Of a stretch of 64,000 bases of DNA, positions 1,517 to 60,951 are shown in pieces. Numbering within the stretch: position 1 is the first letter of the stretch; every line of letters starts with the position of its first letter. The stretch covers positions 1,440,001-1,504,000 of the forward strand of contig CBDANS010000006.1 in NCBI GenBank assembly GCA_965197745.1, given 5' to 3'. The translations under genes were made by a program, and so were the position numbers. This stretch comes from Opitutales bacterium (GTDB taxonomy: Bacteria; Verrucomicrobiota; Verrucomicrobiia; Opitutales; PNEW01). Below the pieces are notes generated by a model. That model had not been told where the DNA came from. It did not search any database and worked only from the letters and a program-made list of their open reading frames with translations.

Positions 1517-2236
1517 CTACTCCTCCGCTTTCTTAAGAATCGCGGGATCCCAACGGTAATCTTTAAATCCTATGCGAAAGAAGAGGGAGTAAAGAACCGG
1601 GCAGAGGGCCAACGTCAAGATAGTGGAAAAGGCGAGACCGAAAATAATAACGTTAGCCAACGGTCGCCACATCTCTCCTCCCTGGAGAGAGAGCGGAATC
1701 AGCCCAATTACGGTGGTCGTCGCGGTGGTAAGGATGGGGCGCATTCTTGATAGAGCGGTCACCATTATAGCATTGGCGTCATCGATTCCTTTTTTGCGAA
1801 GCGCTTCGATACTGTCGATTATCATGATTGCATTATTGACGATTATACCCATGAGGCTAAGTGCACCGAGCAAGGCCATAAATCCAAATGCAGCATCGGT
1901 AATGAGCAAACCCAGGGCGATGCCGAAAATCGCCGGCACAATAGTAATTCCAATGATGATGGGACGTGTAACCGAATTGAACATGGAGACAAGGGTTAGA
2001 AAAAGTAGACCCATCGCCAAAGGAAAACTGGCCGCGATAGACTCTTGCGCGATGGCACTTTTTTCCTGCTCTCCACCAAATTCATAAAAGAAACCGGTTG
2101 GCCACTCGGGGGTCTCCATCATCGCATCGAGCTTGGGTTGAATTGTGGCTAAAGAGTCAGTCGCGAAATAACCCGGACGGAGATAAGCTTTTATGGTCAT
2201 CGTTCGCTTACCGTTTTCTCTTCGTATATTTGCGGG
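1517..2236 (-). pseudogene. 3' fragment of AcrB/AcrD/AcrF-family RND efflux permease, 5' part removed at IS3 boundary
   Basis: GIIVNNAIMIID, RMRPILTTATTTVIGLIPL and WRPLANVIIFGL motifs. Homology stops at the IS left end (2237); the ORF-track N-terminus is IS-derived. Confidence 0.85.
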
Positions 2237-2301
2237 TGGAGTGACCCCCAAAAATGGTATCATTAACAGAGAGAGGTTATCGGGATAAACAGATAACCTC
2301 A

Positions 2302-2568
2302 ATGAAAAGAAAAAGATATACAACAGAACAGATCATAGCAATACTGCGGCAGCCCGATACGGGCAAAACCGTGCAGGAAGTCTGCCACGGCAACAACCTA
2401 AGTGAACAGACCTTCTATCGCTGGGGCAAAAAGTATGGCAACTTGGAGCTGGCTGATGCGAAGCGATTTAAAGAGCTGGAAAAGGAGAATACGGAGCTGA
2501 AGAAGATGCTCGCTGATCAAATGCTCAAGCTTCGGGTGTTGGAGGAAACGCTCTCAAAAAAATGGTGA
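2302..2568 (+). CDS. IS3 transposase OrfA (HTH)
   Basis: MKRKRYTTEQIIAIL...SEQTFYRW...ELEKENTELKKMLAD is a typical IS3/IS407-like OrfA. Confidence 0.9.
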   Translation: MKRKRYTTEQIIAILRQPDTGKTVQEVCHGNNLSEQTFYRWGKKYGNLELADAKRFKELEKENTELKKMLADQMLKLRVLEETLSKKW

Positions 2569-3481
2569 GCCCAAAGCAGAAGAAGCGAGCAGTAAAAGAT
2601 GCGGCTGAGAAGGGGCTGTGCTCGTTTTAGAGGGCTTGTGCTTATCTCAGCCTCAGTTGGTCAACGTACAGCTACCGACCCAAGCAGGCCAGTAAGAAGG
2701 CTCAGCAATTGGCCGAGCGGATTTTGACCTTGTCCTGGGAACATCCCCGTTACGGTTACCGGCGCATTCGTGCCTTGCTGGTGAAAGAAGGTTGGGCGGC
2801 AAGCAGGAAATTTGTACAGGCAGTGCGACGTTCTTCGGGCTTACAGGTAAAGCCCCCGAAAAAGCGTAGACACCGTCAGGGGATCTCTACTGGGCTCCCT
2901 ACTAAAGCAACCGGTCGCAATCACGTCTGGTCCTGGGACTTTGTCCATGATCGTACAGACAATGGCGGTATGCTAAAGATGATGACCTTGATCGATGTAC
3001 CGAGGAGCTGAAAGCGACGACACTCAAGCGAAGCGAAGACATATACGCGTAAATGTTTACGCATCCGGGTAGCTCGACAGCTCACCTCAACCGATGTTCT
3101 CTCGGTACTCAGCGAAACCATCGATGAAGAGGGAGTTCCTAGCTATATCCGCAGTGACAACGGCAGTGTTCCGAGGAGCGAAGCGACGACATGCGAAGCC
3201 ATTCATTGCTCATCAGGTGCAGCAGTGGTTGTCCGACAAAAAGATCAAGGCGATATATATCGATCCGGGCAGTCCCTGGCAAAACGGTTTCATCGAATCG
3301 TTCCATGCCCGTTTTCGTGAGGAGTGTTTAAACCGTGAACAGCTATGGACTTTAACCGAAGCACGTGTAGTGATCGAGGATTGGCGCCAGACCTATAACC
3401 ATGATCATCCCCACAGTCGATTAGGCTTTAAAAGCCCACAAGAGTTTGTCACATTCCTTTCAGATCTTGGCCGCGTTCGGG
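2562..3481 (+). pseudogene. IS3 transposase OrfB (DDE), inactivated
   Basis: YGYRRI, WSWDF, SDNG and PWQNGFIESF motifs. TAG at 2628-2630, in-frame insert with TGA at 2998-3040, frameshifting insert at 3169-3200, and 3' truncation. Confidence 0.9.
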
Positions 3482-4799
3482 TGGTCGGGTTACACAAACT
3501 GGTCCACAGGGAGAGTTAGTCTGGAGAGGTTAATGTTGAAGTTAAGTTGGTAGAGGAAGTCAAGGCTTGGGCGCAATGAGGGCGTAGCCCGAATGGAGCC
3601 CGAGCCTTCGGTATTGAGGTTTTCAGTGAAGTGCCGTGGAGTGATGTTGCCGAGGCTGCGGTGGGGTCGGACATGATTGTAAAGCCAGCGCCAATCTTCG
3701 ATGACCACGCGGGCTTCGGTCAAAGTCCATAGCTGTTCACGGTTTAAACACTCCTCGCGAAAACGGGCATGGAACGATTCAATGTATCCGTTCTGCCAAG
3801 GGCTTGCTGGTTCGATATAGAGGGTTTTGATTTTCATCGCAGTTAGCCAGGCTCTCAATTGGCTTTCAATGAATGGCTTTGCATGTCGTCGCTTCGCTCC
3901 TCGGAACGGAACCGTTGTCGCTACGAATATATTTTGGCGGCCCATGCCGGTCGAGCAGTTTTTGCATGATACCGCGCACCGTTTCCGCATTGATATGGCG
4001 ATCAACATGGATCACCCGGCACTCGCGGGTGTACTCATCGAGCACGGTCAGCATTTTTAGACTGCCGCCGCGAACCGTCTTATCGTGGATAAAATCCCAG
4101 GTCCAAACATGGTCGGGATGTTCGGCCTTTGTCGGTAGCCCGGTGCAGACACCCCTGCGCCGGCGTCTTGGCTTGCGTGGGGGGATCGCCAGACCCAGTT
4201 CACGTCGCAGACCTTGCACGAGACGTTTACCCACCTGCCAGCCTTCGTCCTTCAACAGCTTCGTGATCTTGGGATAGCCCCACCTCGCGTATTGCCGTGA
4301 TAACCGCCTTACTGCCGCTTTTAGTTTCGTTAGCCAGGCATCCGGATGCTTGGCCCTATACGCATAGGTGGAACGGTGCAGCCGAAAGTACCGGCACCCC
4401 GCTCGCATCGAACACTGGCCCCGAGTCACAAGTCTCTCTGCCACTTGCCGCTTGTGCCCAGGGCTTACAGTTTTTTTTCGAGGGTCTCCTGCAGGATCTC
4501 TATCCCCAGCATCTTGTCCGCCAGCATCCGTTTTAACCGCGCGTTCTCCTTCAAAGAGCTCCTTCATCCGCTTGGCCTGGTTGACATCAATCATCCCAAA
4601 CTCACGTTTCCAGCGGTGGAAGGTCTGTTCGCTTATGTTGTTCTCGCGGCATGCTTCCAGGATCGTTTTCCCTTTGTCCGCCTGGCGCAGCATCCGTATT
4701 TTCTCTTCGGTCGTGTATCTTTTGCCTTTCATTGTCTGTGTCCTTTCTAGTTGGACCAGACTAACTTTTCAAGTGGACCAGTTTTCGTGGTCACGACCA
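3482..4799 (-). mobile_element. IS3-family element copy 2 (1318 bp, full length, inactivated)
   Basis: Ends TGGTCGGGTTACACAAACTGGTCCA (3482) and TGGACCAGTTTTCGTGGTCACGACCA (4774-4799) are imperfect IRs. No target duplication visible. Confidence 0.92.
3490..4732 (-). pseudogene. IS3 transposase OrfAB with two frameshifts
   Basis: An extra T after ...MKEL fuses OrfA into the OrfB frame. A 32-nt insert at 3875-3906 after SDNGS shifts the frame. WTWDF, VLDEYTREC and PWQNGYIESF present. Confidence 0.9.
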
Positions 4800-31866: not shown

Positions 31867-31973
31867 TTGTCATCGCGAAGGAGGTGATGCCGACTGTGGC
31901 GATCCAGGGGAATGTCTGTAGCGTAACGCCGGCCCCCTGGATTGCTTCGTCGCGCTACTCCTCGCAATGACAA
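31867..31973. repeat. Palindromic element TTGTCATyGCGA...TCGCAATGACAA
   Basis: Terminal IR plus inner IR ATCCAGGGG/CCCCTGGAT; shorter copy at 60862-60919. Confidence 0.75.
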
Positions 31974-36030: not shown

Positions 36031-36203
36031 TTGGCGATTTCCGATTTTTGATTTCCGATTGAACCTGGTGGTTATTAAAAACTTATTCTTATATCAAGTA
36101 TCTTAAATCTATATTTATCTTGTGCTTTTTGTGGCTTTCTTGCTTTTTTATCAATCGAAAATCGGCAATCGTACCGAGGGCAAAGCCCGACATCCTCCAA
36201 ATT

Positions 36204-60861: not shown

Positions 60862-60951
60862 TTGTCATTGCGAGAAGCAGTGCGCCACGGTCGGCTGATA
60901 GCCTCCCTCGCAATGACAAGAGGAGGTGGAACGCGCTGTCCCTAACGCGTT
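60862..60951. repeat. Palindromic element (13-bp IR TTGTCATTGCGAG) followed by a GGTGGA-type REP
   Basis: IR arms at 60862-60874 and 60907-60919; GGTGGAACGCGCTGTCCCTAACGCGTT at 60925-60951. Confidence 0.75.

Follow-up and report, generated by a model that had tools for sequence, protein, structure and literature searches.

Here we report that two adjoining insertion sequences (IS) of the IS3 family, isA and isB, in a 64,000-nt stretch of an Opitutales bacterium genome (assembly GCA_965197745.1, contig CBDANS010000006.1, positions 1,440,001 to 1,504,000; hereafter the window) carry hairpin inserts of 32 or 43 nt in their transposase genes. These inserts are members of a genome-wide family of tagged hairpins that resemble repetitive extragenic palindromic (REP) sequences, and they are not specific to IS. 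On balance we think it probable that such REP-like mini-elements break IS3 genes, that the broken carriers spread with transposase acting in trans, and that the inserts cross between IS copies by gene conversion. New in this genome are a nested element of very small size, many pairs of filled and empty sites whose junction is defined, two IS3 families turned almost completely into insert-bearing passengers, and conversion tracts that are one-sided; literature searches, judged mainly from their listings, gave no account of REP-like inserts inside transposase genes.

Mini-inserts and empty sites in two IS3 elements

A search of the window revealed two exact sites of the 32-nt insert, one in each element and on opposite strands (Table 1), with no match in 100 shuffles; a single base (G/A) separates the two inserts. 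A 43-nt relative of the 32-nt insert lies upstream in isA and contains an in-frame TGA. An earlier note on this DNA, made from its letters alone, had reported the 32-nt insert directly after the SDNGS motif at both positions, with a net gain of 31 nt, and the 43-nt insert with its TGA and a net gain of 42 nt; matches and alignment confirmed each of these statements. Both carriers have the IS3 layout, with OrfA containing a helix-turn-helix (HTH) domain and OrfB an rve (DDE) domain. isA and isB alike matched the Pfam families HTH_Tnp_1, HTH_21, rve and rve_3, and the insert splits the rve domain. Corresponding to the programmed frameshift run of IS3-type elements, seven A residues (A7) occupy 2556-2562 and orfB lies in the -1 frame; the ends of isB (TGGTCG.../...CGACCA) are terminal inverted repeats starting with TG. 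Among its copies isB is coded as 100 + 354 aa or as one fused frame of 415 aa; near-identical copies differ by one base in a T/A run (4474-4482 in the window), which yields one form or the other; the difference may reflect true variation or an assembly error in a homopolymer. In addition to two mini-inserts, the window isA is burdened with an early TAG in orfB (2628-2630) and an isB-like patch of ~110 nt at ~3290-3400. An exact 24-mer search of public genomes with the insert returned only two records, both Opitutales/Opitutaceae metagenome-assembled genomes. Two further assemblies, from related genomes, and contigs from public runs contain the same inserts, which are therefore not an assembly artefact.

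We aligned 37 isA-like and 43 isB-like copies from the genome (4.45 Mb in 7 contigs), each at least 900 nt long, using BLAST and MAFFT, and found natural empty sites for each window insert. At site 2, which follows SDNGS, empty alleles read GGCAGTG|AATTCATT or AGTTCATT in isA and TCCGAGTTTATT in isB (a vertical bar marks the junction), and at site 1, the position of the 43-nt insert, the empty allele reads GATCGATG|AATATACG in 7 aligned copies. Comparison of the two states revealed that the insert of 32 or 43 nt splits a Glu codon (GAA or GAG) into G[insert]A, with one codon base replaced and a net length of +31 or +42; the earlier suggestion of a split Glu codon was thus borne out by naturally empty copies. 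Quantification of sites by flanking context throughout the genome gave 29 filled and 11 empty for site 1 (ID-E-YTR; 43 nt), 72 filled and 10 empty for site 2 (SDNGS-E-F; 32 nt), 9 and 71 for site 3 (R(D/E)-E-CLN; 36 nt), 11 and 69 for site 4 (PW-Q-NG; 43 nt), and 7 and 33 for site 5, where a 24-nt insert lies antisense at the slippery run of isB. All mini-element sites share the target N|A(A/G)T, in which the element together with a following A replaces 1-2 target bases, and only G or C is found as the 5' flank. A tRNA-linked mini-element in a relative (G035) is a clean insertion. The mini-element has neither terminal inverted repeats nor a target duplication, and it fits neither miniature inverted-repeat transposable elements (MITEs) nor miniature transposons of the IS200/IS605 type.

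A genome-wide family of tagged hairpins

All members, 23-45 nt long, follow one plan: the box T[AT]CCGAG lies on the 5' side, a short hairpin (stem 4-7 bp, loop 3-8 nt; GAA loops and tandem G.A pairs are frequent) comes next, and the box CGACAY leads into a C-rich, CTTCC-like tail that ends in C. The core motif has 240 hits in the genome versus 6 in a reversed-sequence control; a few relatives of this Opitutales bacterium are also rich in the family. Pairing within the hairpin is kept despite sequence change (GGAGC/GCGAC, GGAAC/GTGAC, GGGC/GCCC and, with longer stems, TCCCGC.../...GCGGGA). Nearest-neighbour folding of the two window inserts as DNA gave -1.1 to -1.6 kcal/mol, not better than shuffles (z +1.35 to +1.76), under a model that omits the special stability which the GCGAAGC mini-hairpin is known to have. 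The earlier idea of a tiny, frame-breaking hairpin element is upheld, its filled and empty sites showing that it was inserted; the stability of its fold was not confirmed by this model. About half of the 240 mini-elements lie outside IS, in ~100 contexts that comprise intergenic repeats, tRNA-linked repeats and heptad arrays (CAATCG arrays and CCCTGAA arrays, the latter e.g. at C5:500022 and C7:1485969). Site selectivity, as originally proposed, consequently holds for a short target sequence and fails for transposases. A long (CCCTGAA)n heptad array also occupies positions 1381-1507 of the window.

In the tRNA-linked repeats, the mini-element lies in the T-loop copy TTCG|A|ATCC of repeated tRNA 3'-end copies that follow tRNA-Asn and tRNA-Gln. 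At two such loci (L001, G000:C6:354800-356400; L002, G000:C5:235800-237300), units of ~100-170 nt follow these tRNAs and end in a copy of the T-arm and acceptor 3' strand of their own tRNA, with the mini-element in the T-loop copy; a locus of G035 (L006) is a tandem array like these units. The tRNA-linked repeat gave a weak RtT-like hit in Rfam (23.7 bits, under the 45-bit cut-off).

The commonest host of the mini-element is itself a repeat, here termed Type I, with the structure TGTCATTGCGAGGAG-variable-GACGAAGCAATCCAGG and a TGTC tag. Of a total of ~97 copies, ~57 read ...GC|AATCCA and are empty, and ~40 read ...GC[mini-element]A(T/A)TCCA and are nested. In a survey by Di Nocera et al., CGTC-tagged REPs are described as having CGTC or TGTC for a tag, an 8-9 bp stem whose first bases are AT, a loop of 4-5 nt and a tail CCA; Neisseria dRS3 is a member, and the group is stated to be without a dedicated transposase (PMC3733652). 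That source also states that intragenic REPs are abundant in Opitutus terrae and that Rickettsia palindromic elements occur in protein-coding genes (PMC3733652). From a second study we take that the Neisseria NTS reads CGTCATTCCCGCGMAVGCGGGAATCYRG, that GIY-YIG single-strand nucleases named Ssn cut Ssn-related motifs (SRMs), that O. terrae has a cd10448 homologue by loose criteria only (Supplementary Data 4), and that the repeat-ssnA-repeat unit was raised as a possible domesticated mobile element (PMC11893778). Type I is similar to these repeats in its TGTC tag leading into an AT stem start (TGTC-ATTGC...; ATTGC/GCAAT) and in its CCA tail, and GTCATT...AATCCAG of Type I parallels CGTCATT...AATCYRG of NTS; it departs from the stem and loop of CGTC-type REPs in having a long variable interior. 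The complementary strand of the mini-element likewise reads TGTC, hairpin, TCGG, the tag standing as ATGTCG before the hairpin. Unlike CGTC/NTS-type REPs, the mini-element is shorter, with a stem of 4-7 bp that includes G.A pairs, has no CCA tail, is nested in a larger repeat and lies inside genes out of frame, and in one relative (G040) it is found without a close GIY-YIG homologue.

Like NTS around ssnA, Type I repeats stand in inverted orientation around small single-domain GIY-YIG genes. They occur within 250 nt, on both sides and both strands, at 4 of 4 full or near-full GIY-YIG genes, and at least 10 C-terminal remnants of such genes lie beside Type I repeats. A nested mini-element is located ~95 nt upstream of three GIY-YIG genes. 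The 97-aa GIY-YIG protein (encoded at G000 C7:1541992-1542282) matched GIY-YIG alone in Pfam, and its best solved relative is a UPF0213 protein (E = 1.5e-5). A co-occurrence survey of 41 related genomes revealed a close homologue of the gene in 4 of them (G000, G001, G002 and G015), all rich in both repeats.

GTAG REPs and REPINs, which are associated with RAYT transposases (Y1/HUH), are also short, tagged, high-copy hairpins presumed to be non-autonomous (PMC3733652). With its usual preceding G, the mini-element starts GTAC or GTTC and in this respect resembles GTAG REPs. Unlike in the GTAG REP/RAYT system, the lone Y1/RAYT-like gene of this genome (L011, G000:C6:163380-163706) is flanked by different inverted repeats (GGGTCAGACTGCGAAT / ATTCGCAGTCTGACCC) unrelated to the mini-element. 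The earlier note had proposed a search for a RAYT/HUH gene flanked by the motif; none was found in this genome, only 1 of 10 Y1 loci examined in relatives has a mini-element nearby, and we rejected a link to RAYT. The whole genome of G040 contains 46 Y1_Tnp matches.

Multiplication of filled copies and gene conversion

Four young groups of IS copies were distinguished (isA group 1, n = 14; isA group 2, n = 9; isB group 1, n = 13; isB group 2, n = 15), each with at least 99.3% identity within the group, and inserts are present in 47 of these 51 copies. isB group 1, to which the window isB belongs, consists of 9 filled and 4 empty copies. All 9 filled copies have the insert variant ...GCAAAGCC, which occurs just 12 times among the site-2 inserts of the genome; because they share so rare a variant, the insert predates the transposition of those copies. 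The early TAG in orfB is common to 14 of 14 isA group-1 copies and the window copy, and therefore broken copies multiply, which needs transposase in trans. Judging from their open frames (415 aa or 100 + 354 aa), the 4 intact, insert-free isB copies, located at 4 different loci, are the likely transposase source; their flanks contain no unambiguous target duplication of 3-4 bp. The IS-borne inserts go back to ~5 sites, and IS transposition then amplified them.

Filled and empty copies of isB group 1 differ in the insert and in the three bases just 3' of it (GAG TTT vs G[..]A TTC), and the filled state matches isB group 2. A chimeric isA copy (C7:1673.4-1673.8 kb) consists of isA, the insert, ~80 nt of isB group 2 directly 3' and then isA again; given this copy and the three adjacent bases in isB group 1, the sharing of the insert between diverged IS families can at least partly be ascribed to conversion. 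In the alignment, the isB-like patch of the window isA lies further downstream of its insert. For the bulk of copies, the left flanks of isA and isB are different as far as the insert itself, so that either the tracts stop there or the site was hit twice. Taken together, the aligned copies show that conversion among IS copies, also between the families, is real and tends to start at the insert. The earlier note had regarded a conversion tract between the two window copies as fatal to its proposal; conversion turned out to be common among IS copies, and no direct tract connects the two copies of the window.

The features of the window are listed in Table 1. A gene for an RND-type transporter on the - strand is interrupted by the window isA: the C-terminal part of this RND/AcrB-like protein (1517-2236, -) is apparently cut off by the insertion at 2237, and the listed open reading frame (ORF) 1517..2323 extends into isA. 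Two tandem units of ~45 nt (tttccttcgNctNcgctcaggacNggca), a different small repeat, lie at 1160-1260, just downstream of a hydrolase-like gene.

Table 1. Mini-elements, their carriers and related repeats in the window.
Feature	Position	Strand	Remarks
isA, IS3-family element	2237..3481	+	ends set by BLAST against 36 other copies
Site-1 mini-insert, 43 nt, net +42, TGA in frame	2998..3040	+	ID-E-YTR motif, GAT G[...]A TAT
isA site-2 mini-insert, 32 nt, net +31	3169..3200	+	after SDNGS, AGT G[...]A TTC
isB, second IS3-family element	3482..4799	-	abuts right end of isA; terminal repeats TGGTCG...
isB site-2 mini-insert, group-specific variant ...GCAAAGCC	3875..3906	-	TCC G[...]A TTC
Type I repeat, empty copy (GTCATTGCGAGGAG...GACGAAGCAATCCAGG)	31936..31971	-	TGTC-tagged
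Intergenic mini-element TACCGAG-GGCAAAGCC-CGACAT-CCTCC	36172..36198	+	inside CAATCG heptad array
Inverted pair of Type I heads (GTCATTGCGAG ... CTCGCAATGAC)	60864..60917		

Explanations weighed and their significance

In the explanation that we consider probable, the carriers would no longer be autonomous and would be moved in trans by transposase from the few isB copies that are intact and insert-free, and the insert would pass between IS copies and subfamilies by short conversion tracts that begin at it and extend in the 3' direction; such tracts would explain why flanks that have diverged contain an identical insert. A new site might perhaps first be occupied when a nuclease initiates copy-in from an existing mini-element, which would leave a sharp 5' junction and let A/AT microhomology set the 3' junction; an Ssn-like GIY-YIG nuclease is only a candidate for this enzyme. 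That the mini-elements are among the smallest moving DNA, spreading by homing-like, one-sided copy-in driven by an Ssn-type GIY-YIG single-strand nuclease, is a tentative proposal whose correctness we hold to be doubtful. The mini-elements persist in IS copies and other repeats, where their insertion does no harm, and owe their high copy number to the disabled IS.

Known elements offer parallels. Non-autonomous IS derivatives and MITEs are mobilised in trans, and here too defective copies outnumber the intact, presumed sources of transposase; unlike IS derivatives of that kind, the carriers are full-length elements disabled by the same tiny foreign insert and not by internal deletion. Homing of introns and inteins brings co-conversion of flanking markers, comparable to an insert that spreads between homologous or homeologous copies with a short, one-sided donor flank; unlike introns and inteins, the insert is not spliced out and has no endonuclease gene, and a nuclease cutting the empty sites is only a candidate. 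Rickettsia palindromic elements are also small, palindromic selfish DNA within ORFs, but they are larger, in frame and apparently translated in functional proteins, whereas the inserts described here measure 32-43 nt, break the frame and reside in mobile-element genes.

Several results weigh against our explanation. We could link no enzyme to the mini-element. The G040 genome contains 234 mini-elements yet lacks both Type I repeats and a close GIY-YIG homologue, and in G012 there are 56 Type I repeats although the gene is absent. The published degenerate SRM pattern gave 16 hits versus 19 in the reversed control, that is, no enrichment, and had no match on the window inserts. The orientation of mini-elements relative to GC skew showed no bias (61 vs 49). 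Windowed typing of all site-2 carriers added several patches that adjoin the insert on its 3' side and one or two that lie on its 5' side; several of these patches are called from few diagnostic bases. The inserts are more conserved than their flanks: isA groups 10% apart differ in them at 0-1 of 75 nt; we would attribute this to conversion and recent spread, and a function could fit it too. Among the aligned genome copies, no isA-type copy was free of all inserts, so that isA mobilisation must come from isB transposase or from a lost copy; we infer help from isB from terminal repeats that are similar, not identical.

A simpler history, in which each site received one old accidental insertion and all else followed from IS transposition and recombination or conversion, with no mobility or target choice of the insert itself, would fit the documented conversion and chimeras, the restriction of the exact insert to a narrow clade and the IS bursts that account for copy number within IS. 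We judge it rather unlikely, given that the same architecture recurs at five IS sites and in ~100 non-IS contexts, always at N|A(A/G)T and with the same junction signature, that it is nested in so many of the Type I repeats, and that the left flanks of isA and isB differ right up to the insert. It is quite improbable that the carriers are autonomous and tolerate the inserts through bypass or frameshifting, removal from RNA or transient excision from single-stranded DNA. Inserts in nearly all young copies, frames that are otherwise open if the insert is ignored, and the unusual conservation of the insert speak for tolerance. The net lengths (+42, +31 and +35) obey no frame rule, however, and exact removal of the element leaves the frame one base short at every site. 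Programmed bypass of the T4 gene 60 type requires, at every insert, a hairpin, matching codons for take-off and landing, and a stop that follows take-off; a conceivable pair, CCG...CCA, is present in the 32-nt insert only, and none exists in the 43-nt and 36-nt inserts. We also inspected contigs of three RNA-library runs and one other run, taken from other studies without matched DNA. Joints that skip the insert were observed at 2997>3042 (X19, X20), at 3168>3208 and 3873>3907 (X18), and at 3870>3907 (X18, X1), but they hold extra letters (AG, AGTTTATC, CT and AAACT) that match empty alleles and could not have arisen from filled DNA, and filled forms are found in the RNA-library contigs as well (X18). 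Frame analysis and these contigs, which come without matched DNA, thus gave no support for RNA removal or recoding, and an Rfam search of the IS region returned no relevant match. Moreover, isA group 1 multiplied despite its shared stop codon, and trans-mobilisation is needed in any case.

The earlier note had also raised the possibility of a dedicated host system that silences IS by inserting hairpins into conserved transposase codons. That IS3 genes are hit at five sites, four of which lie in conserved motifs, and in almost all young copies is in line with such a system. We nonetheless regard it as very unlikely and found nothing in support of a silencing function: about half of the family sits outside IS in non-coding repeats, IS DNA is simply tolerant of insertions, ~5 independent events in ~117 kb of IS DNA do not, by our estimate, exceed the density in other dispensable DNA, and the carriers still proliferate. 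The least probable of the explanations is that the insert is a scar, or a miniature attachment-site remnant, of T-loop-targeting integrase islands that also hit IS3 genes. A tyrosine-integrase island indeed lies inside an isB copy (G000:C7:1065100-1066400), which it interrupts at a T-loop-like site, ATCGAATCG (motif IES), and mini-elements also occur in T-loop copies (TTCG|AATCC). Yet the junction of the island has neither T[AT]CCGAG nor CGACAY, no direct core repeat flanks the inserts, and each 5' box in the genome has its 3' box within 45 nt, which leaves no large element with such ends. We conclude that the insert, a REP-like mini-repeat with a loose target, does not represent a system dedicated to countering transposases.

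Short CGTC/NTS-type repeats with a tagged hairpin occur widely, and how they multiply is the question at stake. The filled and empty pairs, the junction signature, the nesting and the one-sided co-conversion make the mechanism of insertion directly testable; if true, copy-in driven by Ssn would be the first view of how CGTC/NTS-type REPs without a known transposase multiply. If that proposal is true, it would also mean that such REPs can turn whole IS families into non-autonomous passengers. In two IS3 families, one and the same foreign insert of 32-43 nt disables nearly every recent copy, and the copies spread nonetheless; this bears on how an IS load is tolerated and on IS annotation, in which frameshifted transposases usually count as pseudogenes.

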